Of a stretch of 39,856 bases of DNA, positions 8,550-39,414 are shown in pieces (within the stretch, counting starts at the first letter, position 1; each line of letters begins with the position of its first letter). The notes below the pieces were generated by a model, which was not told where the DNA came from, did no database searches, and was given only the letters and a program-made list of their open reading frames with translations. The stretch lies in the NCBI GenBank assembly GCA_964583985.1, contig CAZOYD010000028.1:1-39856 (forward strand), in the 5' to 3' direction. Source of the stretch: an uncultured archaeon. GTDB taxonomy: Archaea; Asgardarchaeota; Lokiarchaeia; Sigyniarchaeales; SOKP01. Both the position numbers and the translations under genes were made by a program.

Positions 8550-9962
8550 TTAAATATAAGTTTTTATCAAATCTTTTATATTTTTAACAAAATCAGATAA
8601 ATGCTTTTCAACATTTACTATACCTTGTTCTTTTTCCACGTATAAAAGAAGATAAAGATTATACTGATCGACGATTATTCTTTTAAAAATCACGTTTTTT
8701 GAATCATCAGTAATTCCAGATGATGTGAGATAGTCTTTTTTCAACAATTTAAATTCTTTAAATGTTTTAAATAATGTTTGATAATGTGGAGCAGAAATTT
8801 CAAATACTGTTTCGGAGATCTCAGATTTTGAATAACTGGATAATATAATACCATTATCATTTAGTAGCAAAATTGCCTCCGAATTTGTATTCAATGCAAA
8901 CTGCTTTAGCTGGTTTAAAAATAATTCGCGATTCGGACTTAATTGACTAAGACCAAAACTATATGCCGAAATCAAGGACCAGTGATCAAAGATAGATGTG
9001 TTGAACATTTTAAAGAAAAACCCTTCAGATTGTTTTTCTATATCAATAGTTACATTCTTAATTCGCTTTTTCATGTATTTTGTATCTTTCAAGTCAGGAT
9101 CATGTTTATTCAAGCAAATAACTATTGGTGGGAACTCATTTAGCTCTTTTAAATTATAAATTATTTCAGCATACATTTTTAGCGATTCTGCTATTCTTTC
9201 TTCATCTTGGATGTCAATAAAATAGAACAAAAGATCGATATTATATAGATAAAATTTACTTTCTTCGATAAATTTCTCACGATACGTTTTCTGACCTGCC
9301 AAATCCCAGATTGAAATTTGTGAATTTTGCTGTTCGAATAACTTTTCTTGCGATCGAGCAACTCCTTTAGTTGGTAAGACCTTTATAATTTCTGAATATC
9401 TCTTTTTAACTCCCAACAAGAAGCTAGTTTTTCCAGCACCATCAATCCCAGTAAATAAGATCTTAATTTGGCGTTTTATTGATAATGGATCTTCTAATTC
9501 TTCGGTAAATTCTATGAGTTCTGTTTTTAAACTTTGTATTGTTTTCTCAATTTCTGCAAAATCCTTAGTTACTTGGATTTTAGAGGCTGCTTTATCAATG
9601 ATGATTCTTAAGTATTTCATGTTTTCGTAGAAGAATACTCTATTAGACTGATCAATTAAGATTGTTATTGTAGACGCTTTCGCATTTCCACGAGCTTGAG
9701 CATCAGGAATCAAAAAAAAGTATGTTAATCCATTTAATTTCAAATCTGGAAAAGGAAGTATGCCAAAATAGCTAATTTCTTCTATAGATGAGCCGTCTTG
9801 ATAAATTGCATCCCCCATTAAAATTGATATCGTCTTCATGGCGATGAGTAACCGAGCTGATTCATCCATATCTCGTGGAAAATAAATTTTCGGCGTGGGA
9901 CCATCATCATCAAAAATACTGAATACAATAGCTTTTATAATTTCCGGTTTTTGGTCGCTCAT
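8550..9962 (-). CDS. uDENN/longin - Arf/Rag-like small GTPase - roadblock fusion protein
   Basis: N-terminal VFSIFDDDGPTP; G1 GIDGAGKT, G2 PT, G3 WDLAGQ, G4 NKHD, G5 TSIFD; C-terminal EAILLLNDNGIILS roadblock pattern. Confidence 0.85.
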   Translation of the reverse strand: MSDQKPEIIKAIVFSIFDDDGPTPKIYFPRDMDESARLLIAMKTISILMGDAIYQDGSSIEEISYFGILPFPDLKLNGLTYFFLIPDAQARGNAKASTITILIDQSNRVFFYENMKYLRIIIDKAASKIQVTKDFAEIEKTIQSLKTELIEFTEELEDPLSIKRQIKILFTGIDGAGKTSFLLGVKKRYSEIIKVLPTKGVARSQEKLFEQQNSQISIWDLAGQKTYREKFIEESKFYLYNIDLLFYFIDIQDEERIAESLKMYAEIIYNLKELNEFPPIVICLNKHDPDLKDTKYMKKRIKNVTIDIEKQSEGFFFKMFNTSIFDHWSLISAYSFGLSQLSPNRELFLNQLKQFALNTNSEAILLLNDNGIILSSYSKSEISETVFEISAPHYQTLFKTFKEFKLLKKDYLTSSGITDDSKNVIFKRIIVDQYNLYLLLYVEKEQGIVNVEKHLSDFVKNIKDLIKTYI

Positions 9963-10174
9963 ATTCTCTTAGCCTTATAATTATTCTCCGAGATGAATGC
10001 TATTAAATTACCGTAATTAAATGGTCTATTTAAAACCCATGTTACATCATCTAACGATTCTCTCATAAATCATATAAAAGTATGTATTATTCTAATATAT
10101 CAAGGCAGAACCTATTATTAAATATTTGTTAAGCTCAATATCTTAAATCTATTTTGTTCTTTGAACCGTTTAAT

Positions 10175-11965
10175 TCAAGGGACATATTTTAAACTCAAGA
10201 TTTCAGTATTTGTGCAACTATATTTTAAAATTCTCATTAAATCCTTTTGAGTTTGAAGATTTTCTTTATGATTTCCGATTGAAATTTCCACCCTCGCATC
10301 ATTTAAGATCCAAGGATGAAAAATACCTTGTTTTTTAATTATGTCGTCTAAATCAAGATTTTCCTTTGCTCTAAAATGTGAAGATGTTTGATAATTCTTT
10401 ATAGCTAATTTGGGAAAGTGTTTTAAATCCAATCCTAAGAATCGTCTAATTGCTCCTTTAGACGAAGCGTCAATTAATGAATAATGTTTCCCATCATCCT
10501 TAGAACGCTCTTCACAGGAAATGTGTATCGCTTTCATTATTTTTTTTCCGAAAGAAAATGCATCATCATTCTCGTGTAATTCAAAATTCGTTATGATTTT
10601 AACAGCTTCATTTAATCCAATAAAACCAACACATAATTCTTGGTTACTAAGATCAAATAATTGGCGTTCTTCGACATAACCACCACATAATGGAAGGTGA
10701 CCTGTTCTCAAACGTCGTTCTATAATTGCATGCTTTTTATCCAAAATTTTAAAACAAATATCTAAATTTGATTGAAGGTGCTCAATAAATTTCGTTTCGT
10801 CTTGATTAAGAAAAGCATATCGTGGTAAATTTAATGATATCTTTTGAAGAACTCCATGATTTAAATAAGACAAAGGATCAGTATGAATTAAATTATTGAG
10901 TATTTTGTGTCGATCTACATTAATAAATTGAGGAGTTTGATTTTTTAATACTTCCCTGCAGATTTCCTCATATTGTTGTTTGAATTCATTTAACCATTCT
11001 TTATTATAATAAATTAGGTGTTCAGGATAAGGGAAATAACAATTATTATCATCACCTTTAGTGAAAATTTGTGTGATAATATCAAATAATTTTGTGCATT
11101 CTTGTTTGTATGAACTATAATCCCCAGTTTTTATTCCACCAGGTCCAATTGCAGGTGCATCTAACATTGAAGATAAAATCCCTGTCGAGCAAGAAAGAGA
11201 TGTTTTTAAGTAATTTTTTCCTGAGGACGTTGATAAATAATTAATGCTATAAACAAATCTCTTCATTGCTTCTTGTATTTCTGCATCGTCCAATCCTTGA
11301 ATATATGGGGCTAAAAATAATGTAATTAATTCAAGTCCTTGATTACCGCTAAATTCTGTTTGGATCATTCCTAACCAATTGGCAAGATGATTTACTGCTT
11401 CTTTTAAATTTTTGGCTGGTTTTGATTTGCATGTATAGGTATAATTTTTAATGGGAGGTAATCCATTTTCTAAAATCAGACGAGGATCCCAATACTGATT
11501 ATAAGGACGCAAGTCGAAAAATTTGAGTTGATGAATATATATATCTCCAAATAAGTGAGCTCTTGATTCCTCATCATTGAGAATTCGGAGTAGTGTATAT
11601 TCTTCTGCTAATTGATTTGCAGCCCAATGATGGATTTTTTCTGGATTTATAATGTTTTTTGAATCGATTTGTTGGTTCATTTCAAGTACTTTTTCATAAT
11701 CCATTAAAGGCATCCCAATACGAGTATATAATTTTCTTTCTTGCCCGTATTGATTTTCTGAAAGGATTGAACAAACGATTTCTCTGATATGAGGGCCGGA
11801 TAAAAATTTCATATTAGAACTAATGATTCTTCTAACAACAAGCTCTGTGATCTTTCTAGCATTTTCTTCATCCATACCAGTTTCTTGAATAATACTTTCA
11901 TTTATTTTAGAGGGTTCAAATTCGTCAACATCCCCTTTCTTGAATACTTTTGGTAGAAGATTCAT
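10175..11965 (-). CDS. ATP-cone plus class III (anaerobic) ribonucleotide reductase NrdD-like protein, probably catalytically inactive
   Basis: N-terminal ATP cone (KVFKKGDVDEFEPSKI); AHLFGDIYIH, SGNQG, ISLNLPRYA and VGFIGLNE NrdD motifs. The C-terminal Zn ribbon and RxxGY glycyl-radical motif are missing. Confidence 0.8.
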   Translation of the reverse strand: MNLLPKVFKKGDVDEFEPSKINESIIQETGMDEENARKITELVVRRIISSNMKFLSGPHIREIVCSILSENQYGQERKLYTRIGMPLMDYEKVLEMNQQIDSKNIINPEKIHHWAANQLAEEYTLLRILNDEESRAHLFGDIYIHQLKFFDLRPYNQYWDPRLILENGLPPIKNYTYTCKSKPAKNLKEAVNHLANWLGMIQTEFSGNQGLELITLFLAPYIQGLDDAEIQEAMKRFVYSINYLSTSSGKNYLKTSLSCSTGILSSMLDAPAIGPGGIKTGDYSSYKQECTKLFDIITQIFTKGDDNNCYFPYPEHLIYYNKEWLNEFKQQYEEICREVLKNQTPQFINVDRHKILNNLIHTDPLSYLNHGVLQKISLNLPRYAFLNQDETKFIEHLQSNLDICFKILDKKHAIIERRLRTGHLPLCGGYVEERQLFDLSNQELCVGFIGLNEAVKIITNFELHENDDAFSFGKKIMKAIHISCEERSKDDGKHYSLIDASSKGAIRRFLGLDLKHFPKLAIKNYQTSSHFRAKENLDLDDIIKKQGIFHPWILNDARVEISIGNHKENLQTQKDLMRILKYSCTNTEILSLKYVP

Positions 11966-12180
11966 TTATGTATAATTCCCTTAAATTTATTTATTTCTGA
12001 AGTATTATATCTTTTTTATATAAAAAAGAAAATTATTAATGAACTAATTAGGTTTAAGATTATATTTGGTAATTAGAATACTATTTATTGAATTAGGGTT
12101 ATAAATGATAAAATTTTTCAATTTTTCATTTAATTCTTACCCTCCTTTTCTTATTTTAAGATTATAATAATATAAGTACT

Positions 12181-12996
12181 ATGAAACTATCGTTATCTGT
12201 AAAGACCGTAAAACACTTCTTTTCTGAAATCTACAAGATCTTGAAAGGATCGGATACAAGAGTATCGAAAGTATGGATTGAATTCTCGGATATAAATTTT
12301 TTTAAAGGTAATGATGAATGTGAGATTAGAAGTTATTTAAGCAATTTTGAATCAATCGAAATTCAAAAAGGAAATTATAAAAATTATATAGTAGTTGATA
12401 AAATTCTATTTATTGTTGAAAGTATTCAAATATTAGAAAAGGATATTGATAAATTATCGATATTGGTCGATTTTAATGGATTTGAAGCATTAGTCGAGGA
12501 AATTCTTAAGAGAAATAATTATAAAACAGTTAAAAATTATAGATTTTCTGATAGATCGAATTACAAAACAAAAACAGCTCAGAAAAGGTATGAAATTGAT
12601 GTTATTGGCATATCTAAAAATCTTATTTTACTTATCGATGCAAAACAATGGAAAAATAAAGATTCATTTGCTGCGATGAATAAAGCTGCCAATCACCAAT
12701 ATCAAAGAGCTATTGCATTACAGTCAAATCCCGAAGTTTTTTCTAGCATGGTTCAAGCCGTTTTGGGGATTTCAGATAATATTGAAGATAAACTCCCATT
12801 TATTCTCGTTCCTGTGATGGTGAGCCTTGAACATAACCATATTAAATTTAATGAAAATGATGTACCATTGGTCTCTATTTTTCAACTTAATTCGTTCTTA
12901 CAAGAATTAATAATTAATATGACTTATATTAAAACCATTAAAATAAACAAGTTATTCATTCAGAAACAATTATCTGATTTTTATTCAATCTGTTAA
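12181..12996 (+). CDS. PD-(D/E)xK nuclease-fold protein (Mrr-cat/NERD-like)
   Basis: FEALVEEIL...EIDVIG...LIDAKQWK motif. Confidence 0.75.
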   Translation: MKLSLSVKTVKHFFSEIYKILKGSDTRVSKVWIEFSDINFFKGNDECEIRSYLSNFESIEIQKGNYKNYIVVDKILFIVESIQILEKDIDKLSILVDFNGFEALVEEILKRNNYKTVKNYRFSDRSNYKTKTAQKRYEIDVIGISKNLILLIDAKQWKNKDSFAAMNKAANHQYQRAIALQSNPEVFSSMVQAVLGISDNIEDKLPFILVPVMVSLEHNHIKFNENDVPLVSIFQLNSFLQELIINMTYIKTIKINKLFIQKQLSDFYSIC

Positions 12997-14001
12997 TCCT
13001 AAATATTGTTTGACTTGTTTCTTTACAATATTCGCAGCAAAATAAATAATCCCACTCTTAATGCGAGGATTGGAAAATAAGATTAAAAGCATGTCTTGAG
13101 TAATTGGAGCTAAATCCAATACACCTTGACTCCCTCTAACTGAAATATTGAGTAATTTACCAGCATTTAATCCTTCTATGATATCATTTCCAATCATTGA
13201 TAGATTTTGACCGATTACCCCAAAAAGTGTATCAGATATGCGAGAAGAGATTGCCGATGCAAGAATAGTTCCTTCTGATTTAATAATTGCTGATGCTTCA
13301 ATATTCAAATCTATCTTTAAGAGATTACTTAATATTTCATTCATGCTTGTTGGGGGTATTGATTCTTTTTCTACTTGAATTTCTTCTTTTTTTTCTAGTT
13401 TATCACGCGATGTTCCTTTAATACTTATTTTTTCTGAAAGAAACTTTAAAACTTTCGACATGTCTTGCTCTAATTGTTTTTGACGGATAACTGAATCATC
13501 AATTGGGCTCTCTTCTTCTAATACAGTTGATTTGGCTGTAATTTTTGGTTTTTCTAAAGCAGATTTTGCTTTTCCTCGGGCAAAAGAACCATACACATCT
13601 TTTTGTGCTATAATTGAACCCTTATAAGGACCAGGAGTAATCTCTTTTAATATTTCTCTTTCATATTCTTCCTTTTCGATAAAATCATCAAAATTTTCTC
13701 CTGATTCCTTTTTTTTTATAATTTCCTCGCTCATCTCTTGATTACTCGGTAAAGCTCTCACTTTAGGTATCTCTTGAAGTTCAAATGATTTTGGTTGGGT
13801 CTTGGAGTTATCTGGAGGTTTTTCTTTTGATTTTTGTTGAGGTTTAAATGAAGCTTGTTTGTCTTTTTTTACTGGTTGTTTTTTAGTTTCTATTTTAACA
13901 CGAGGAGCTTTTGTTGCAACTGGTAATAATGCCCCACACTTACGGCAAATATGTCCTTTAGCTTCATTGTTTGTTGCTCCACAATTACTACATATTATCA
14001 A
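12985..14001 (-). CDS. Zinc-ribbon protein with disordered linker and C-terminal roadblock/LC7 domain
   Basis: CSNCG...CRKCG; long K/E/P/Q-rich linker; IEASAIIKSEGTILAS...GKLLNISVRGSQG roadblock pattern. Confidence 0.8.
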   Translation of the reverse strand: MIICSNCGATNNEAKGHICRKCGALLPVATKAPRVKIETKKQPVKKDKQASFKPQQKSKEKPPDNSKTQPKSFELQEIPKVRALPSNQEMSEEIIKKKESGENFDDFIEKEEYEREILKEITPGPYKGSIIAQKDVYGSFARGKAKSALEKPKITAKSTVLEEESPIDDSVIRQKQLEQDMSKVLKFLSEKISIKGTSRDKLEKKEEIQVEKESIPPTSMNEILSNLLKIDLNIEASAIIKSEGTILASAISSRISDTLFGVIGQNLSMIGNDIIEGLNAGKLLNISVRGSQGVLDLAPITQDMLLILFSNPRIKSGIIYFAANIVKKQVKQYLGLTD

Positions 14002-14149
14002 TGAGATCTCCTTAATTTTTTCTTCTCAAAAATGAATTTGTATTGAAATACATTTTATTTGACATAATAATAATAAAACTCTTGATTTATTAATTTTAAT
14101 TAATAAGAAAAATAAGAATTATCTTTGGTCCTTTAAAACTCAATCATAA

Positions 14150-15133
14150 CTAATTCTTTAAAATTTCTTTTAGGAGATTAGCAAATGAATCAAAATCTTC
14201 CTCATTGATGGTAGGATCTTGCTTGAGCATAAGTAAATAATAAGGTGGGCTATCTTCTTTTAACTTTAATTGCTTGAATACAAAATTCTTCCCAAATCGT
14301 TGAACAATCATCTTATTTTCTTCTTTTTCACGTCCGGGTAAAACTTGAGTGAACTGAAAGCTATCGTTTAACGTGAGAAAATAAGGGGTGGATGCGGATA
14401 ATAGATTTTTGACTTCCTCATTTTTATAAAAACTTCCTATGATTAAAGAATTATCATCAATCATAACCACTCCTTCAGAATCTACTTTTCGAGCAAACTC
14501 ATCAATAGTTTTCTCGATTAACTGAGATTTAGGATATAGATTTAATAAGATTTCAGACATCGCTTTAATTATACTAGAAAGGTTATAGATTGATGTATCA
14601 TAGAAGAATATTTGCTTGTAATTCGCAGCTTTCTTGATTTTCTCCCTTAAATCTACTTTCATTGTCTGCATTTCATTAATAGCATTCCTTAAGAGGGCAG
14701 GATCACATTTATGGAAAAATATGTAAATGGGGGGCTCGATTTCAAGTTTATTTAATTGCCCCACGACATCAGCTAAATAACTAATTGATTCAGGAATCCT
14801 AGATTGATTTTGAATGTCGATAACATAAATTAAAATTTCCGTTCCATCAAAATATTTTCCTGGATTTTTAAGATAAGAAATTCTATATGAAATTTGACCT
14901 CCTAAATCCCATTCTGCTATATCTTTTCCCAAAAATTCAAAAATTCTACGTTGAGCACCGCGAGTAGGTTTAAGCAATGCAATTTTTGAAAATTCTCTTT
15001 GAATTGCAAGTATGATTGTGCTTTTACCAGCCGTATCCAAACCAGTAAAAAGGATTTTGTGAGGCTCTTCTTTTTCTTGTTTTTTTGATAGCTTTTCTTT
15101 TGATAAGTATTGAATATCCAAAAATAATCTCAC
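14150..15133 (-). CDS. Rag/Gtr-like small GTPase with C-terminal roadblock domain
   Basis: G1 GLDTAGKS, G2 PT, G3 WDLGGQ, G4 HKCD (Rag-type His), G5 TSIY; C-terminal EGVVMIDDNSLIIG. Confidence 0.85.
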   Translation of the reverse strand: MRLFLDIQYLSKEKLSKKQEKEEPHKILFTGLDTAGKSTIILAIQREFSKIALLKPTRGAQRRIFEFLGKDIAEWDLGGQISYRISYLKNPGKYFDGTEILIYVIDIQNQSRIPESISYLADVVGQLNKLEIEPPIYIFFHKCDPALLRNAINEMQTMKVDLREKIKKAANYKQIFFYDTSIYNLSSIIKAMSEILLNLYPKSQLIEKTIDEFARKVDSEGVVMIDDNSLIIGSFYKNEEVKNLLSASTPYFLTLNDSFQFTQVLPGREKEENKMIVQRFGKNFVFKQLKLKEDSPPYYLLMLKQDPTINEEDFDSFANLLKEILKN

Positions 15134-15184
15134 CTAAATTAAATGAAAAAAATTCTTTAATATATTCTTTAGTAAATTTAAATA

Positions 15185-16546
15185 TCATTCGATTGTATAA
15201 AAATTCTTTTGTAGGTAAGTCTTAAAGTCATGATAATTGCTTAATTCTAAAGACTTTTTTGATTCCTTTTTTTTTTGAATGCATTCCAATGAATTGGGTA
15301 TCATTGGGCGTTCATGTGTTAATTTAGTGATTTGATTGGGAAATTTTGCGGGATCAGCGGTTTCAAAATTTATTGATTTAATATTTTTTTCCATTGGAAA
15401 TTCATTCTGATATCTCAATAATGCTGCCCATCCAACAGCGCCATGAGGATCGATAAGCAATTTAAATTCTTTATAGAAGTCAATGATCGTTTTTTTCGTG
15501 ATTTCATCTGTAATAGAATAAGATCGAATTTCCTCCCGAATTTTTTCCATGTTGGGCTCTTTTCTCAAATTTCCTTGCTCATCAATATGCCCGTTATAAA
15601 GATCAATTAATCGAGCCAAGTTTGAGGGGTGCCCTACATTCATTGCATTTGATATGCATATTTTTGACGGTTGCACTTTTTCATAATATCCGGTAGCTAA
15701 AAATTTGGGAAATTCATCATTTTCATTTACGGCAGAAATGAACTTCTTCACGGGTAATCCCATTCTCTTTGCGATTAGTCCTCCCGTGAGATTCCCAAAA
15801 TTACCGGATGGTACAGAAAAAATAACCTCCTCATTTTCATGTTCGATGATATCAGAATAACTTTTAAAATAATATACAGCTTGTGGCAACAATCGACCAA
15901 TATTAATTGAATTAGCAGAGGTCAGATTTAAATGTGATAGACCGGAATCTGAAAACGCGTTTTTTGCAAATCTTTGGCAATCATCAAATTTTCCATTAAT
16001 CGCAATCGCTGTGATATTTCCTCCTAAAGTTGTCATTTGCTTGCGTTGTAAGGTGCTAATCTCCTTTTTTGGATAGAGAATTACTACATCAACATTTTGT
16101 TTGTTAAAAAAGGCTTGAGCTACAGCACCACCAGTATCACCAGAAGTCGCCGTTATAATCACAATTTTTTTATTCTCTTCAATTAAAAATTGTTCCATAA
16201 AACTCGCTAACATTCTTGCTCCAACATCCTTAAAACTGCAAGTTGGACCCTTATCTAAATAGCAGAGATAATTATTTTCTATTATTAAATTTATGGGAAT
16301 TGGAAAATCAAGACTTTTATTAATAATGTTTTTTAGGTCTTTTTCTTGCATCTCTTCTTCTAAAAATGGATAGAGAATTTCAAATGCGTTTTCTTTAAAA
16401 TTTAATGACTTAAATTCAAAAATTTCATCTTGAGAAATAAGAGGGATCTTGTCAAACATGTAAAGACCATTATCGGGAGCTTGCCCTTTCAAAACCGCTT
16501 CCTTAAAACTCACGTTAGAAGAACGTTTATTTGTAGAATATAACAT
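15185..16546 (-). CDS. thrC: Threonine synthase
   Basis: GQAPDNGLY, GPTCSFKD (PLP Lys), ATSGDTG, SANSINIGRL, VPSGNFGNL, DPHGAV. Confidence 0.95.
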   Translation of the reverse strand: MLYSTNKRSSNVSFKEAVLKGQAPDNGLYMFDKIPLISQDEIFEFKSLNFKENAFEILYPFLEEEMQEKDLKNIINKSLDFPIPINLIIENNYLCYLDKGPTCSFKDVGARMLASFMEQFLIEENKKIVIITATSGDTGGAVAQAFFNKQNVDVVILYPKKEISTLQRKQMTTLGGNITAIAINGKFDDCQRFAKNAFSDSGLSHLNLTSANSINIGRLLPQAVYYFKSYSDIIEHENEEVIFSVPSGNFGNLTGGLIAKRMGLPVKKFISAVNENDEFPKFLATGYYEKVQPSKICISNAMNVGHPSNLARLIDLYNGHIDEQGNLRKEPNMEKIREEIRSYSITDEITKKTIIDFYKEFKLLIDPHGAVGWAALLRYQNEFPMEKNIKSINFETADPAKFPNQITKLTHERPMIPNSLECIQKKKESKKSLELSNYHDFKTYLQKNFYTIE

Positions 16547-16554
16547 CTTTATTA

Positions 16555-17103
16555 TTAAATATTTTTTATTGGATTAAATTTATTTTGTGCAAAGATTTCA
16601 TTCAATTTATCAATAACCGCTTGAGGAGTATCGGCACCATAAATTTTATCAGTTCTCCTATCATCCAGTTGTTGTCCCGCCATTTTTGATGACCATCCTT
16701 CAACACAAGTAAGACCAATTATTGGTTTTTCATAGATCCATGCAAAACAAATTTCTGATAATGTTCCTGCTTTACCTGCTATTGCCACACACGCGTCTCC
16801 ACTCAAAACAACTACCACATTACGCGCTTGAGAAAATGGGATCGGTATAACAATGTCCACGTATTTATTTGCCTTATTTTTGTCTATAAAAGGGATAAGT
16901 CCTATTGTTAGCCCTCCTTCTTCTTTTACTCCAAAACAAACCGCTTCCATTACACCTGAAAGTCCTCCACATGATACCGCATATTTATTTCGAGCAAGTA
17001 ATCGCCCTAATTCGACAGCAACTTGCCTTGTTTGTTCATCGATTTCGCTTGCTCCAATTACGGCTATTGTTCCCTTAAATTTATCTTTGAAATTAAAACT
17101 CAT
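16555..17103 (-). CDS. LOG/SLOG-family nucleotide-binding protein (TIGR00725-like)
   Basis: IAVIGAS, CGGLSGVMEAVC, ARN, GKAGTLSEI. Confidence 0.9.
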   Translation of the reverse strand: MSFNFKDKFKGTIAVIGASEIDEQTRQVAVELGRLLARNKYAVSCGGLSGVMEAVCFGVKEEGGLTIGLIPFIDKNKANKYVDIVIPIPFSQARNVVVVLSGDACVAIAGKAGTLSEICFAWIYEKPIIGLTCVEGWSSKMAGQQLDDRRTDKIYGADTPQAVIDKLNEIFAQNKFNPIKNI

Positions 17104-17259
17104 GGCTTTTTAAAATCCTTTTTTTTATAATTTGTAATATTCTGGGAGTCTTTTTATTTGTTTAGAATATTTTTATCCAAAAAAAGATGTATTTTTGTAT
17201 TGACATTATTGATCATTAGATTGTTGAATAATGTTGATCAAAATGATCGAAAACAAAAA

Positions 17260-17266
17260 TTTATAT
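17260..17266 (+). promoter_or_regulatory. Candidate archaeal TATA box for the small zinc-finger gene
   Basis: TTTATAT preceded by an A-rich BRE-like run, 23-29 nt upstream of the ATG at 17289 (leaderless geometry). AT-rich background limits confidence. Confidence 0.35.
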
Positions 17267-17288
17267 GGTAGGAATCTAATATTTATAT

Positions 17289-17486
17289 ATGGAAACAAAA
17301 CATCGATTAAAACCAAGTATTTTTATAGCACCCCCTCGGGACGACACTACTGTTTATTGCCCGGATTGTGGATATGCAATGGAGAAAATCCCTCATACAC
17401 CTAAAAATAAAAAACCAATTTATCAATGTCCTAGATGTAATATATTTATTCCGGAACAAGTTTATGGCCTCTTAGATTTTAAATAA
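17289..17486 (+). CDS. Small CPxCG-type zinc-finger protein
   Basis: CPDCG...CPRC in 65 aa. Confidence 0.75.
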   Translation: METKHRLKPSIFIAPPRDDTTVYCPDCGYAMEKIPHTPKNKKPIYQCPRCNIFIPEQVYGLLDFK

Positions 17487-17633
17487 AGACTAATAAAGAG
17501 AATTAAATTTCCTTATGGAGCATATTGGGGTTTTTTTAGCTTCCTTCTTATTAATTAAATCTAGCCCTAAAGATAAATGAAATTTTGCAATCCATAATAT
17601 ATAATTTATTTTAAAATAAGATTTCGTCTTGTT

Positions 17634-18686
17634 TCACATTACCAATTTGTTTGAGGAATATCTCATTCTTTCTTGAATAATAAATATTAAATCATTCATT
17701 ATTGCAGAAGCAGCTTCGGCACCTCCTGCACCCCTTCCAGATAATACAATTTTACCGGCATTCTTAGTTTCTAATTCAATAATATTTAAAGAATCATTGA
17801 CGTTAAAATAAGAACTTTTATTAACAGGGTGAGGTTTTACAAATAAATGTCCATTTTTCGCAAATGATAATTGTTTGATAACTTGATTATTTAATTTTGC
17901 TAATTCAATATCATATTTATTGATATTTTCAATTCCCTTGATATTTACATCCTTAATAGTTAAGCCATAATCTAACAGTTCATCTGCGAGAATAACTAAT
18001 TTACCAGCAGCGTCGTAACCACTAATATCTAGATTTGGATTAGATTCTGCATAACCCAGATCTTGTGCTTCTTTCAAAGCCTGTTCAAAACGACATCCAT
18101 GATTGAACATTTTGCTGAGGATATAGTTTGAAGTCCCATTTAATATCGCAGTTATTCCGATTATTTTACTACCTTGTAAATTTCTTTTTATCGATAATAT
18201 GGGAACGCAACTTGCTACTGTAGCCTCGTATCTGATTAGCTGCATTCGATCTTGTGCTATTTTTTTAATATTTTTATAATCAAGATAAAGTGGAGCTTTA
18301 TTAGACGTTATAACATCCATCTTATTATTAAGAGCTTTTATAATATGTGATCTTGCTGGTTCTCCATTATCTGGAATTGTGGGAGTAGTTTCAATCATTA
18401 TATTAAGATTTAGTTTATCAATATAATCTAGAGCGCGATATCCAGATTTCCAATTTACAAGAGTCCGAAATTCTTTCCCTAATTTTAATAACCTATCTAA
18501 ATTTATCCCATTTTCGTCTAAAATCGCACCATCATTTTCAAAAATTCCTAAAACTTTAATATCAATCTTAAATCTACTGATAATAATTGGGTTTATCTCA
18601 TTTAATAATTGGAGAAAAGCAGTTCCAACATTTCCTTTACCAATTAATCCGATATTAAAATTCATGTTAAAGAAATTATGGCTCAA
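17634..18686 (-). CDS. hom: Homoserine dehydrogenase
   Basis: GKGNVG Rossmann motif, TSNKAP, YEATV, ILNGTSNYIL, LGYAESNP, DAAGK, GRGAGG. The start may be a downstream ATG. Confidence 0.93.
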   Translation of the reverse strand: MSHNFFNMNFNIGLIGKGNVGTAFLQLLNEINPIIISRFKIDIKVLGIFENDGAILDENGINLDRLLKLGKEFRTLVNWKSGYRALDYIDKLNLNIMIETTPTIPDNGEPARSHIIKALNNKMDVITSNKAPLYLDYKNIKKIAQDRMQLIRYEATVASCVPILSIKRNLQGSKIIGITAILNGTSNYILSKMFNHGCRFEQALKEAQDLGYAESNPNLDISGYDAAGKLVILADELLDYGLTIKDVNIKGIENINKYDIELAKLNNQVIKQLSFAKNGHLFVKPHPVNKSSYFNVNDSLNIIELETKNAGKIVLSGRGAGGAEAASAIMNDLIFIIQERMRYSSNKLVM

Positions 18687-18797
18687 TTCGAGTTCTGGAT
18701 AAATATCAGAAGATACCTTATATTTTTTTCTTATGAATTTTTTGATATCTCCAAAAAGACGACAATCTAGTTAGGTGTTATGGATCAATATTAAAAT

Positions 18798-19502
18798 CTA
18801 TATCCCCGAGGGAGGATTATAACGTAAAAACTCGGGAATTCGCTCACCACATTCAGGACAAAAAGTTAACCCTTCATCGATGGTTTTACGGCATTTTGGA
18901 CAATTTATTTTTCCAGCAATTGTTGATACTACATGTTCATATCCATCTGGTTTAGTAGCTTCCTTTTTTATTCCTATTTTCACTCCTTTAGATTTTTTAA
19001 ATAAGATAACTAATGAAAGGATAATTATTATTGCAAGGAAGGAGAATAGTGGAATTACTCCTAAACCATATATAATTTCAAAATTTTCATTGTAAGAAAA
19101 TGCTCCTGTGATATTAAGAGAAAATTGATAAATTCCAGGTAATGTAGTTATCAATGGAATTAGTTGCAAATAAAAGATTTGAGATAAGTTATTTCCAGTT
19201 AATGATAATGAATGATTTTCAATACTAAAAAATTGAGGTCCTATAGATTCGCTAAAAAAGCATTGAATTTGTCCAGTTTGGTTCACACTAATATTTAATT
19301 GAAGTTGAGGATAAAGCCAAACCAAGGAAGGTAAGAATGTATCGATTGTAAAATTATGAAAACCTTGAGAAGAATGTATTATTGTTTGTTCTTCTTGTGA
19401 TGAAGAGTAATTTGAGCTTCTCATAAATTGAAAGGATGGTAATGAAATAAAAGAAATAATAAATAGAACACTGAGAAAGATATTTTGCGTGTACCGAGCC
19501 AT
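18798..19502 (-). CDS. Membrane protein with extracellular beta domain, TM helix and cytoplasmic zinc ribbon
   Basis: Signal peptide, TM VIPLFSFLAIIIILSLVILF, then CPKC...CPECG. Confidence 0.75.
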   Translation of the reverse strand: MARYTQNIFLSVLFIISFISLPSFQFMRSSNYSSSQEEQTIIHSSQGFHNFTIDTFLPSLVWLYPQLQLNISVNQTGQIQCFFSESIGPQFFSIENHSLSLTGNNLSQIFYLQLIPLITTLPGIYQFSLNITGAFSYNENFEIIYGLGVIPLFSFLAIIIILSLVILFKKSKGVKIGIKKEATKPDGYEHVVSTIAGKINCPKCRKTIDEGLTFCPECGERIPEFLRYNPPSGI

Positions 19503-19531
19503 GATGATTTCCCTATCTGATTTATAAGATA

Positions 19532-20491
19532 CTAAAATTTGATTACATCAAGTGATTTCTTTCCATCACTTATTTTCAATAAATGCTCATCCTTAATAAT
19601 TTTTCCAATGATGGTAGCGGTTAAATTATGTTTATCAAAGATCGTGAGGATCTCTTTGCTGTTATCTTCTGGAGCAGTTAATATATATGAGGTGGTTAGA
19701 TACATTTTAATAAATTTTTCCAGATCATAACCATTTTTAGTTAAAAATGGTGGGATTGTTATTTGATTTATGTTAATTATAGCTCCAAGATTAGAATATT
19801 TGATAAGTTGTAATATAGTTCCAAATATTCCCGCATTGGAGATATCTTTAGCAGAATTAGCTAAATGTTTTTGTGCAATTATGTTCATTGATTTTCTTCT
19901 GAATAAAACCTCTTCAGATTGTTTAAATGTAACGGTATCCCAATAATATTTACCCACGTCCGGGATTTTACCCTTAAAATCTACTGCTAATATGATATCA
20001 TCTTCGTATTTCGCGTTTTTCGCTGATAAATAATCACTTTTTTTTATTTCACCAATCATTGTGGAACTGAGTTCATTGTAACTACTATTTGGGTTAGTAT
20101 GCCCTCGCACGATAGGAACGCGAAATTTTTGAGAACCCACCAAGGCTCCTTTAAATATTTTTTCACCGATGTGCTTATTTGTAAAAGACACTATCAAACT
20201 TGCTGCCAAGGGAGTTCCCCCACAACAATAAATATCATCTATCCCTACCAATATTGAGCTAAATCCCGCTCCAAATGGATTTTTTAAAATATACTCCGTT
20301 TTTATCCTATCTGTAGTCATTAGGATTAAATTTTCATCATTTAGAATAGATGCTGAATCTTCTCCTATATCTGAAAGGATTCTTTTGCTCTTGTATGATT
20401 CAGATTGAATTAATTGAATAAATGGATTGATCTCTCTTTTTTCAATAATATTTTTATTTTCTATAATTGCTGTGGCAATTTTTTTTAGCAT
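19532..20491 (-). CDS. AIR-synthase (PurM/ThiL/SelD superfamily)-related protein, sll0787/methanogenesis-marker-2-like
   Basis: IGEDSA, DDIYCCGGTP, RGHT, AKDISNAGIFGT. Confidence 0.8.
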   Translation of the reverse strand: MLKKIATAIIENKNIIEKREINPFIQLIQSESYKSKRILSDIGEDSASILNDENLILMTTDRIKTEYILKNPFGAGFSSILVGIDDIYCCGGTPLAASLIVSFTNKHIGEKIFKGALVGSQKFRVPIVRGHTNPNSSYNELSSTMIGEIKKSDYLSAKNAKYEDDIILAVDFKGKIPDVGKYYWDTVTFKQSEEVLFRRKSMNIIAQKHLANSAKDISNAGIFGTILQLIKYSNLGAIININQITIPPFLTKNGYDLEKFIKMYLTTSYILTAPEDNSKEILTIFDKHNLTATIIGKIIKDEHLLKISDGKKSLDVIKF

Positions 20492-20577
20492 TATATAAAT
20501 CGAGTATAAAATTTAATATGTATTATTGAATCCTATTAATATATCTGATAACAAAACTTATAATTAAGCTTTAGGTA

Positions 20578-22071
20578 ATGGAAGAATTAATAAAGTCCTC
20601 AATTTTTAATGGATTAGTATTCGCAGTCTATGATAAATTTGGTCCACAACCCATTTACATGTTTCCTAATCCTATTAGGAGAACTTTTCAAGATGATGTA
20701 AATCATGAATCTCAAAAAGATTTACTTGAATTAACAATGAGAGATTATACTCAAATATCAATAAAAAATCTCTCTCTCTTGATAGGGGATGGTTCTATTT
20801 TTGAGAATCCTAAAATACAGGAATTTAAACATCATGCAATCATTCCATTTCCTGATTTTCACTCTACATCTTTAACATATTTCCATTTCGTTGAAATCGA
20901 ACAATCTGAAAAACCCATAGCTACAGCATTTTCCCTATTAATAGATGAAAATCGTAGAAGCTTTCTGTATAATAATATGGATCGTTTACAACATATAATT
21001 ATAGATTTTTTTTTGAAATTTGATAAAGAATTATTTGGTAATTTAAAAACTCAAGAAGAAGTAGAATCTTTCTTTGAATCCCTTTTAAACCAAATGATGG
21101 AAATACAACAATCACCCTCTACCTCATTTTCAGCTCAAAGAAAAATGAAGATTTTATTTTCTGGATTGGATGATTCTGGGAAATCTTCCTTTCTTCTTTC
21201 CGTTGATAGAAAATATTCGAAATTAATTGGGGTAAAACCTTCTTTAGGAGCAAAAGTTAGTTCAATTGAAGCATTGGGGGCAACAATTTTTTTATGGGAT
21301 CTCGGAGGGCAACTCAGTCTGAGACAAAAGTACTTGAATAAAGCTCATATATATCTTTACGAAGCAGACCTTTTATTTTATTTCATTGACGTCAGAAATC
21401 AGAAGAGGTTCAAAGAGAGTTTGGAATATTTAAAAAATATTAAAGATGTATTGGCTAAATTTGAACAAAAGACTCCGATTATCTATGTTTTCTCAAAATC
21501 AGATCCCGATATTTTAAATTCAAGGAAAATTCAAAATAATATCAGTACTCTTACAAAAGCTATTGTTTCGGAGGGAAAAGCAGAAATATTTTTGACTAGT
21601 ATATTTGATCCATTCTCAATTTTAAGAGCTTTTAGTTCTGGCATCGCGAAATTAAGCCCAAATCGTGATTTAATAGAACATAATCTCAACCTCTTTTTAA
21701 AAGATACTAAAATATATTTAGCTTTATTGATGAGTGGCGATGGGTTAATTATTGCAGAAGTTTATACACCTAAAGCATCTAAAATCACTAAAATAAATGA
21801 ACCTCAAGAACTTTTAAACGTATTTGAACTCACTGGACCACAATTTGCCATCCTCTTTAAAATTTTCTCAAAATATAGATCTATTCCTCAGAATGAAGCT
21901 ATTTTTAAAGTAGCAAACTCTGTAATTTTGGTTAGAAAGGTAAAAATTTCAAATTTTGAAATGTTCATTTTATTGTTAGTGGATGATGAATCCGAAAAAG
22001 AAAATATCAATCTTAAATTACCGAAATTCATCGAAATTACAGCAGATTTGTTATTAACTTATATTTCTTAG
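20578..22071 (+). CDS. uDENN/longin - Arf/Rag-like small GTPase - roadblock fusion protein (paralogue of 8550..9962)
   Basis: VFAVYDKFGPQP; IIPFPD; G1 GLDDSGKS, G2 PS, G3 WDLGGQ, G4 SKSD, G5 TSIFD; shares LSPNR(D/E)L and the roadblock tail with the paralogue. Confidence 0.85.
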   Translation: MEELIKSSIFNGLVFAVYDKFGPQPIYMFPNPIRRTFQDDVNHESQKDLLELTMRDYTQISIKNLSLLIGDGSIFENPKIQEFKHHAIIPFPDFHSTSLTYFHFVEIEQSEKPIATAFSLLIDENRRSFLYNNMDRLQHIIIDFFLKFDKELFGNLKTQEEVESFFESLLNQMMEIQQSPSTSFSAQRKMKILFSGLDDSGKSSFLLSVDRKYSKLIGVKPSLGAKVSSIEALGATIFLWDLGGQLSLRQKYLNKAHIYLYEADLLFYFIDVRNQKRFKESLEYLKNIKDVLAKFEQKTPIIYVFSKSDPDILNSRKIQNNISTLTKAIVSEGKAEIFLTSIFDPFSILRAFSSGIAKLSPNRDLIEHNLNLFLKDTKIYLALLMSGDGLIIAEVYTPKASKITKINEPQELLNVFELTGPQFAILFKIFSKYRSIPQNEAIFKVANSVILVRKVKISNFEMFILLLVDDESEKENINLKLPKFIEITADLLLTYIS

Positions 22072-38358: not shown

Positions 38359-39414
38359 ATGAGCGGCGAATTAATTCATTCAATTATTTATACTGAGTTT
38401 GATGATGAGATAGGTCCTAATCCATTGTTTTATCTTCCAAAAGAATTACCTGAGCACATACGGATGCTTGTTGGAATAAAAACAATAACAATTCTCTCAG
38501 GAGATCATGGATTTATCCCTGAATCGCTCATGATCATTCCTTTCCCCTCATTAAAATTAAAAGGAATCATAAAATATATAGAGAGACGGGATCCAGAGAG
38601 GAGAGGTAATGTCGCTCAATCTGCAATTACTTTTTTATTCAAGGAAATAGATGACATAATTTTTTATCGCTATATCGATTATTTAGACGCTCCATTTAAT
38701 GAGACGGCTCGAATTATCGGTGATCTCATATCTCAAAACGCTCCGCATGATGCGATTATTCAAGAATTAAACCATTTACGAGATAATATCCATTCCATAC
38801 TCATCCAACTTAAAGTTAAAGAAAATATTCAAGTTTCTTCCAAACCATTTCCCGAAATATTAAACAAAGGGGAAAATATCATCGAGTTCAAAATCAAGTT
38901 ATCAATTTGTGGAGATCCAGGTGTTGGAAAAACAAGCACTATTGTAAGATTTACTGATAATGCTTATAGTAGGCGTTATCTTCCCACGATGGGCGTATCA
39001 ATTAGCGACAAATCATTTAGACTTAAGAATAACGTGGTTGAATTAGTTTTATGGGATATTGCAGGGCAAGCTAAATTTCAAACGATGCGCAGGCATTTTT
39101 ACCAAGGAAGTGAAGCAGTCGTCTTGGTTTTTGATCTTACAAATCCCAAAAGCTTCTCAAGCATTAGTGATTGGTATACTGATATCCAAAGGAATATTTC
39201 TAATGAGGTGAAACCTTTAGGTTACCTTTTCGGAAATAAATGTGACATGATAGAGGAGCGGAAAATCAATAAAGAAGATGCCATAAAACTCGCAAGTAAT
39301 TTAAATTTAAATTATATCGAGACTTCGGCACTAACTGGGGAAAACATTGAATATGCATTTTTTCAGATTGCTGAAAAAGTTGTAAATTCCATAAGAGAAC
39401 CAATGTACAATTAA
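38359..39414 (+). CDS. uDENN/longin - Rab-like small GTPase fusion protein
   Basis: IYTEFDDEIGPNP; IIPFP; G1 GDPGVGKT, YLPTMGV, WDIAGQ, FQTMRRHFYQGS, GNKCD, ETSALTG. No C-terminal Cys. Confidence 0.9.
   Translation: MSGELIHSIIYTEFDDEIGPNPLFYLPKELPEHIRMLVGIKTITILSGDHGFIPESLMIIPFPSLKLKGIIKYIERRDPERRGNVAQSAITFLFKEIDDIIFYRYIDYLDAPFNETARIIGDLISQNAPHDAIIQELNHLRDNIHSILIQLKVKENIQVSSKPFPEILNKGENIIEFKIKLSICGDPGVGKTSTIVRFTDNAYSRRYLPTMGVSISDKSFRLKNNVVELVLWDIAGQAKFQTMRRHFYQGSEAVVLVFDLTNPKSFSSISDWYTDIQRNISNEVKPLGYLFGNKCDMIEERKINKEDAIKLASNLNLNYIETSALTGENIEYAFFQIAEKVVNSIREPMYN

Follow-up and report, generated by a model that had tools for sequence, protein, structure and literature searches.

Gene A (P0001), one of two paralogous longin–GTPase–roadblock (L-G-R) genes in a 39,856-nucleotide stretch of DNA from an uncultured archaeon of the order Sigyniarchaeales (contig CAZOYD010000028.1, in its entirety referred to as the window), encodes a Rag-like protein whose longin domain lacks the arginine finger that its paralogue, gene B (P0002), carries. 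Throughout the orthologues sampled, the arginine (Arg) is absent from A and present in B, A and B are mostly found one each per genome across the order, and both belong to a conserved gene cluster, within which a third Rag-like gene (C) is placed between them. In eukaryotic nutrient signalling, Rag heterodimers are switched by pairs of longin GTPase-activating proteins (GAPs), only one longin of each pair bearing the finger. By comparison with these systems, and judging from the sequences, the best reading, put forward tentatively, is that A serves as the physical, non-catalytic partner of B. A sequence-only reading of the same DNA had likewise proposed A as a candidate non-catalytic heterodimer partner; its underlying observation was confirmed by the analysis reported here, while its interpretation was partly supported.

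Domain layout of A and B

Gene A is an intact open reading frame (ORF) of 497 amino acids, and its orthologues from Asgard metagenomes have about 500 residues, share 55-85% identity and are alike at the N-terminus. A and B align end to end over their full length (31% identity, E-value 7e-76). Within A, Gtr1_RagA (PF04670) was identified by Pfam at residues 191-399 with 71.6 bits as compared to a cut-off of 22 (E 8e-20), and the Arf model matches the middle of the protein (E 1e-16). The AlphaFold2 (AF2) model of A, which was built on 119 aligned sequences, reached a mean predicted local distance difference test score (pLDDT) of 78.4 and a predicted template modelling score (pTM) of 0.56, and shows an N-domain of ββαβββαα topology followed by the G domain and a C-domain of the αββαββ type; for the model of B the respective values were 77.5 and 0.77.

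When the whole models of A and B were searched with VIA-align against 48,161 chains, residues 7-181 of A were found to superpose on the solved Lokiarchaeal longin 8yqg_B (Z 17.2, root-mean-square deviation (rmsd) 2.5 Å, 145 of 157 residues), as does the N-domain of the B model (Z 17.7, rmsd 2.1 Å). The best match of the G and roadblock part of A, residues 189-492, was LokiRagO (8yl2; Z 26.4, 26% identity), the same residues matching RagC (6nzd_G) with Z 24.1 and an rmsd of 3.4 Å over 275 aligned positions, and further matches of A were Gtr1 (6jwp_A, Z 22.1) and 8fw5_E (Z 22.7). Foldseek returned the same neighbourhood for the G and C-terminal part, namely LokiRagO (8YL2), RagA/RagC and Gtr1/Gtr2 with TM scores of 0.69-0.75 on the target. 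Both whole-model match lists are dominated by GTPase chains, 8yqg being the sole longin to surface, so that the missing FLCN, NPRL2 and SMCR8 chains carry no weight either way. Because Pfam, the AF2 models and the VIA-align matches agree, the L-G-R layout is real in both A and B. The sequence-only reading, which had ascribed to the two proteins one three-domain layout with collinear motifs, is borne out by these results, as all motifs that it quoted were recovered in place, in A as PFPD, LTYF, LID, RRSFLYNNM, KILFSG and YLY, followed by TSIF (residues 340-343) and LSPNR (residues 359-363).

Searches of PDB sequences with the B longin and with a longin profile yielded chance coiled-coil matches and a weak match to 8yqg (E 1.5) but no chain of FLCN, NPRL2 or SMCR8, and therefore do not show homology to these proteins at the sequence level. 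A has no match to the Pfam models Folliculin (PF11704) and NPR2 (PF06218). B scores 22.3 bits with Folliculin, just below the cut-off of 23.3, and among 51 longin sequences scanned, 25 match this model, all of them sub-threshold (best E 5e-05); judging by the equal count, these presumably are the 25 B-type sequences of the set. A look-up of the A longin in the ESM Atlas gave leads below 0.9 only, including a weak one (0.82) to an archaeal cluster in which NPR2 is found in 19% of the members.

Absence of the arginine and retention of the GTPase motifs

A joint alignment of 120 A orthologues and 120 B orthologues was used to follow the finger loop through both families. The column of B Arg91 holds Arg in 120/120 B orthologues, flanked by Ala90 (118/120) and Gly92 (120/120), whereas in A it is occupied by S, T, D, A or E and in 0/120 by Arg, which makes the missing longin arginine a fixed family trait of A and not a peculiarity of one gene. 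The replacement of the DAQARG loop by EIEQSEKP, as claimed from the sequence alone, thus holds, with Ser110 taking the place of the arginine, and the question raised with it, whether orthologues of A retain the Arg, is answered in the negative. The GP motif, located at the β1-β2 turn, has been kept in both families, with Gly and Pro unchanged in all 120 A and all 120 B orthologues. Furthermore, the A loop possesses a conserved signature of its own, [ED]-x-P, and the A family has specific invariant residues such as His103.

The G domain of A presents a different picture from that of its longin. Across the A family, G1 reads GxxxxGK[TS] in 120/120 orthologues, G3 is WDLGGQ with the Gln in 120/120, G4 is SKxD with Ser in 115/120 and both Lys and Asp in 120/120, and G5 is TS[ILV]F; the HKxD form of G4, a hallmark of Rag/Gtr proteins that is seen as HKCD in C, is absent from A (SKSD). 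By its motifs, the A G domain retains all that is needed for GTP binding and hydrolysis, and A looks like a competent GTP switch which lacks the longin arginine only. The idea of A being a pseudo-GTPase was rejected, as the P-loop Lys/Ser, the G3 Asp/Gly/Gln and the G4 Lys/Asp are kept in A and in its orthologues from the genomes labelled f1. An altered G2 and G4 had been put forward as well, and the residues in question (KPSLG and SKSD) are indeed present, yet they do not make a distinctive change: the G2 position is Thr in 118/120 A orthologues, Ser occurring only in this protein and one close relative, and SKxD is the family norm. An altered G2 was hence rejected as a family trait, and the Ser is regarded, on the alignment, as a lineage-private, conservative change. 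As the A G domain keeps every motif, the term 'non-catalytic', by which the sequence-only reading had described A, can refer to the longin finger alone.

The A orthologues of the f2 type, from the sister family f2, differ among themselves in the loop, which is often basic (KRKRF, KSDQY, NSQRY and others) and in some of them has an Arg at or near the column, none of these being conserved. Five proteins of this type (P0400, P0402, P0408, P0412 and P0272) have the catalytic Gln of G3 replaced (DIPGA/K/M, DVPGT), with a G4 of TKxD in four of them and SKID in P0272, and the f2-type A lineage also is without the glycine of the G2 'PTxG'. Such G domains, in which the G3 Gln is replaced, may be hydrolysis-impaired.

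Constraint and phylogeny of the two lineages

Conservation, expressed as the mean pairwise identity within the sampled A and B families, was found to be 55% for the A longin vs 78% for the B longin, while the G domains are close to each other (A 71%, B 74%). Near-invariant columns make up 20% of the A longin vs 50% of the B longin, and 42% of the A G domain. Within the loop, 4/7 columns are at least 95% conserved in B and none in A. Both proteins taken from the same genomes, A evolves faster than B (32-57% vs 42-67% identity), and B orthologues from Asgard metagenomes, of 470 amino acids, are 66-90% identical. By these sequence comparisons, the A longin and its loop are under weaker constraint than their B counterparts, which would be expected if the B longin is catalytic and the A longin is not.

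A longin-domain profile searched against 1.84 billion representatives recovered only 191 clusters at E<=1e-3. Arg occupies the finger column in 91/132 of the listed cluster representatives that cover the loop, including all B-type proteins, and in 38/41 of the listed longin–Rab-like fusions; since so many representatives carry it, the finger is probably ancestral and was lost in A. Among the listed representatives, this longin family is most often carried by longin–Rab fusions of about 340-360 amino acids. With the Rag-like C, which has no longin, as the root, a quick maximum-likelihood tree of L-G-R proteins sets a B superclade with ARG in every member apart from an A superclade without conserved Arg, with supports of 86-99 in the Shimodaira–Hasegawa-like approximate likelihood ratio test (SH-aLRT); the deep nodes of this tree are provisional, and the long-branch sequence P0328 joined the outgroup. 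A and B are, as far as these sequences tell, old paralogous lineages. The split in the tree, the f2 loops without a conserved Arg and the f2 replacements of the G3 Gln suggest that A, taken as an entire lineage, is the less catalytic of the two and that its loss of the finger is old and stable.

Co-occurrence and the conserved cluster

When 153 genomes of the same order were compared with A at E<=1e-40, matches were obtained in 142, in most cases exactly two per genome. A single copy of B is present in 131/153, and more than 110 genomes have an intact A ORF. Both genes thus mostly occur one each per genome across the order. Besides the present genome, 66 of family f1 and 4 of family f2 have the two on one contig, always in divergent orientation and 5.6-22 kb apart. 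Genomes in which only A or only B was seen were considered as a sign of independent distributions and this was rejected, as 6/7 of those checked are explained by contig ends, a fragment of A at a contig edge or N gaps.

Within the window, the cluster spans 8550-22071 and has the order B(-), NERD(+), Zn-ribbon/roadblock-type(-), C(-), SLOG/TIGR00725(-), AIR-synthase-like(-), A(+). Comparison with the loci L013-L019, L022 and L039-L044 revealed that every locus examined has C between A and B, that the Zn-ribbon/roadblock-type gene is part of the cluster in f1 only, and that the series B–NERD–C–SLOG–AIRS–A is kept in the genomes of the Candidatus (Ca.) Lokiarchaeum ossiferum type (f2) despite an A of 32% identity. 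The f2 orthologues of A hold the same syntenic position, including NEF87_004665 of Ca. Lokiarchaeum ossiferum, from which the B-type gene is separated by 17 kb. The cluster also survives unrelated insertions, such as those of threonine synthase, homoserine dehydrogenase and proteins of about 880 amino acids, and of large genes in f2. A forms a transcription unit by itself: upstream, a spacer of 86 bp separates it from the divergent AIR-synthase-related gene on the opposite strand, and at its 3' end it overlaps by 4 bp with a convergent MtrH-like gene.

Relation to known systems

The L-G-R architecture has been catalogued for MK-D1 by Tran et al. 2024 (PMC10933270), and A is a member of this Asgard class, as it possesses the same three domains with a Rag/Arf-like G domain and comes from the same archaeal order; neither a split into Arg-bearing and Arg-less proteins nor a one-to-one co-occurrence or a conserved cluster is described in the accessible part of that report. 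Asgard longins of the folliculin/SMCR8 type with GP motif and arginine finger have been described as well (PMC12290439). Architecture and Asgard folliculin-type longins with GP and Arg hence are already published, and a literature search found no paper describing the Arg-bearing/Arg-less split or the cluster. New here are the lineage split, the statistics of its conservation, the conserved cluster and the exceptions to it, which do not amount to proof of pairing.

Among the eukaryotic systems, A was found to be most like C9orf72. The GP motif is specific to GAP-type longins; C9orf72 possesses it, FNIP2 and NPRL3 do not (PMC12290439). Because A keeps this motif and lacks the Arg, and FNIP2 and NPRL3 are without GP, C9orf72 would be, by analogy, a closer counterpart than those of the FLCN–FNIP and NPRL2–NPRL3 pairs; of the three pairs that the sequence-only reading had taken as models, C9orf72–SMCR8 therefore stands as the closest. 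In the A longin, as in C9orf72, GP follows an aromatic-acidic pair, the finger is missing and a paralogue with a finger exists, but C9orf72 consists of a longin and a DENN domain without G or roadblock domain, and the spacing from aromatic-Asp to GP is one residue shorter in A. For the C9orf72–SMCR8 complex it was reported that GAP activity depends on the Arg-less longin and that both longins cup the GTPase (PMC8213707). FNIP2 (with FLCN) and NPRL3 (with NPRL2) resemble A in being the non-finger halves of Rag-directed longin GAP pairs; apart from the missing GP, they differ from it in that they are not fused to a GTPase.

With the Rag/Gtr proteins (RagA/B–RagC/D, Gtr1–Gtr2), A shares the fold of the G and C-terminal roadblock domains (Z 22-24), and here too two diverged paralogues are found per genome. 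In contrast to them, A has an Arf-like P-loop (GLDxxGK), SKxD instead of HKxD and an additional N-terminal longin, and neither A nor B maps clearly one-to-one onto RagA or RagC. LokiRagO (8YL2), the best structural match of the A G and roadblock part, has an orthologue in the same cluster, namely C (E 2e-86 over nearly the full length), but differs from A in having no longin, an HKxD-type G4 and a homo-oligomeric state.

Possible function of A and alternative explanations

According to the preferred reading, for which the chances are judged to fall a little short of even, A and B would work in one GTPase module, A being the finger-less member of a longin pair and probably of a dimer formed through the roadblocks as well. 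In the manner of C9orf72 alongside SMCR8, the A longin would assist in cupping a G domain and holding it in position, and B Arg91 would supply the finger, whereby the two G domains would be regulated unequally, as in RagA/RagC. The G domain targeted by this finger could be that of A, that of B itself or that of C. If finger-bearing and finger-less lineages had indeed already split and been co-inherited in Asgard archaea, the asymmetric logic would predate eukaryotes and would be open to study in a two-protein system from cultivable archaea.

A more specific form of this reading, which also reflects the suggestion in the sequence-only reading that one asymmetric heterodimer combines both pairings, assumes that A and B form a self-contained two-chain complex merging a Rag heterodimer with its longin GAP pair. 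Here the roadblocks would dimerise at one end; at the other end the longins would do so, lying between the two G domains like FLCN–FNIP2 in the lysosomal folliculin complex. Acting in trans on the A G domain, B Arg91 would maintain unequal nucleotide states in the two. This geometry, together with the action in trans, is considered unlikely; if true, the Rag–folliculin/GATOR1/C9orf72 logic would have existed in a fused form before eukaryotes.

Several points weigh against a physical pairing of A and B. The equation of B Arg91 with the finger of FLCN, NPRL2 and SMCR8 follows from motif position and sub-threshold Pfam matches, not from superposition, and is to be taken as putative. The solved orthologue of C (8YL2) is a GTP-bound homotetramer and a second solved Loki Rag-like protein (8ZLA/9M28) a monomer; a literature search found no paper on these LokiRagO/LokiRagM structures. 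Asgard Rag-like proteins of this kind were modelled with AF2 as homodimers by Tran et al. (PMC10933270). As to the genes, A and B reside on opposite strands with 5.6-22 kb between them and do not form one operon, the distance amounts to 80 kb in one closed f2 genome of 4.36 Mb, and linkage within one order can stem from a gene order passed on by descent or from common regulation instead of physical contact. In genome G137, which is 99% complete, B and all of the remaining cluster are retained with A missing: in its locus (L041 13617-14335) the AIR-synthase-like gene is followed by 720 AT-rich bp with a small hydrophobic ORF and then by MtrH, and no A-type match to the A profile was obtained anywhere in this genome. 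G137 is a real loss of A and the only such case among the seven genomes checked. In the f28 and f29 genomes (63-88% complete), only the B type was found with the queries used. As G137 lacks A, and only the B type was seen in f28/f29, the pairing is not obligate for B. The expectation of co-occurrence, which came with the sequence-only reading, therefore agrees with the one-to-one pairs in most genomes and is broken by these exceptions.

The most serious alternative, though somewhat unlikely, is that A works alone as a homodimeric or homo-oligomeric Rag-like switch whose longin was repurposed as a platform, an effector-binding or a GEF-like (guanine nucleotide exchange factor-like) module, its co-location with B being a matter of ancestry and shared regulation. 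Homo-oligomers do occur in this protein family, as the crystallised homotetramer of the C orthologue documents; the solved Lokiarchaeal longin domain itself is a dimer according to the title of 8yqg, and the homodimer models mentioned above point the same way. A longin of such a kind would be in keeping with the loop signature and invariant residues that A has of its own, with most longin domains being GEF or platform modules (PMC12290439), and with G137, in which B does not depend on A. What this alternative leaves unaccounted for are the near one-to-one co-occurrence and the order-wide cluster, as well as the retention in A of GP, a motif linked to GAP-type longins in the literature (PMC12290439); the weaker conservation of the A longin, moreover, fits a catalytic loss better than a new role under equal constraint.

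It is distinctly less probable that the partner of A is another roadblock protein of the cluster, either C or the Zn-ribbon/roadblock-type protein, in a manner similar to the Rag–Ragulator contacts. C is placed between A and B in every examined f1 and f2 locus, the Zn-ribbon/roadblock-type gene likewise in f1, and roadblocks, which are dimerising domains (PMC10933270), are present or presumed in all of these proteins. However, the interfaces of the C orthologue are already satisfied in its homotetramer (8YL2), and it is A and B which share both dimerising domains, longin and roadblock, C having no longin. Finally, the faster evolution of A and its loss in G137 might be taken to mean that A is a decaying duplicate without a function of its own, an explanation which is effectively refuted by the intact ORF in more than 110 genomes, the conservation of its G domain with all G motifs kept, and the persistence of the lineage across the order.

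Features of the window and minor observations

The features of A and of the genes surrounding it are compiled in Table 1. A longin hidden Markov model (HMM) run over the whole genome matched only A, B and the longin–Rab-like ORF, all three of which are located in the window. The product of the Zn-ribbon/roadblock-type gene has no match in Pfam or NCBIfam, and for the AIR-synthase-like protein the best NCBIfam models, 'methanogenesis marker 2' and an sll0787-type model, remained far below their cut-offs.

Table 1. Features of gene A, its paralogue B, the conserved cluster and related longin genes (positions refer to the window unless a locus is named).
Feature	Position	Strand	Basis or remark
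Gene A, Rag-like L-G-R protein, Arg-less paralogue	20578..22071	+	Intact ORF, orthologues, AF2 model
A N-terminal longin, residues 1 to ~180	20578..21117	+	8yqg_B match, model topology
Variable 22-residue insert in A longin, residues 31-52	20668-20733	+	pLDDT <50; 21% mean identity among orthologues
A GP motif, Gly22-Pro23, preceded by Tyr18-Asp19	20641..20646	+	Invariant in orthologues
A β4-β5 loop EIEQSEKP, residues 106-113	20893..20916	+	Aligned to B loop DAQARGNA
A Ser110, column of B Arg91	20905-20907	+	Joint A/B alignment
A Arf/Rag-like G domain	21142..21657	+	Pfam and motifs
A G1, GLDDSGKS	21163-21186	+	Motif
A G2, KPSLG (Ser222)	21235-21249	+	Motif
A G3, DLGGQ	21298-21312	+	Motif
A G4, SKSD	21493-21504	+	Motif
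A G5, TSIF	21595-21606	+	Motif
A C-terminal roadblock domain	21658..22068	+	Superposition on Rag-type chains
11-residue insert in A roadblock, residues 397-407, not in B	21766-21798	+	A/B alignment
Gene B (P0002), Arg-bearing L-G-R paralogue, 470 aa (amino acids), Arg91 in DAQARG loop, candidate partner	8550..9962	-	Alignment, model
NERD-domain gene adjoining B	12181..12996	+	Pfam NERD E 3.6e-05; kept in f1 and f2
Zn-ribbon/putative roadblock-type neighbour of C	12985..14001	-	Kept in f1: L013, L014, L018, L019, L022, L040-L044
Gene C, Rag-like GTPase–roadblock, HKCD	14150..15133	-	Orthologue of LokiRagO 8YL2
SLOG/TIGR00725-family gene	16555..17103	-	Pfam LDcluster4 E 2.5e-40; TIGR00725 above cut-off; kept in f1 and f2
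AIR-synthase-related gene	19532..20491	-	Pfam AIRS and AIRS_C; adjoins A in every examined locus, including f2
Longin–Rab-like fusion, DPERRG (Arg kept)	38359..39414	+	Longin HMM; Pfam Ras E 2e-45
f29 stand-alone longins	L035 1459-1983 (G272); L036 1393-1902 (G274); L037 1393-1902 (G273)	+	ORFs beside B-type gene

Beside B, an NrdD-like gene (10175-11965, minus strand) encodes 596 amino acids in the window, while in relatives only ORFs of about 130-145 amino acids were found in its place (L013 6869-7294, L018 6393-6818, L014 8480-8917); the gene is long in L040, L043 and L044.

In three f29 genomes, a stand-alone longin of 169-174 amino acids without ARG is encoded 1.4-2 kb from the sole L-G-R gene, which is of the B type. 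GP is changed to GA in 2/3 of these longins, and of the two longin profiles, the A-type one gives the stand-alone longin a slightly higher score than the B-type one. From its sequence, it may represent a separately encoded finger-less partner.

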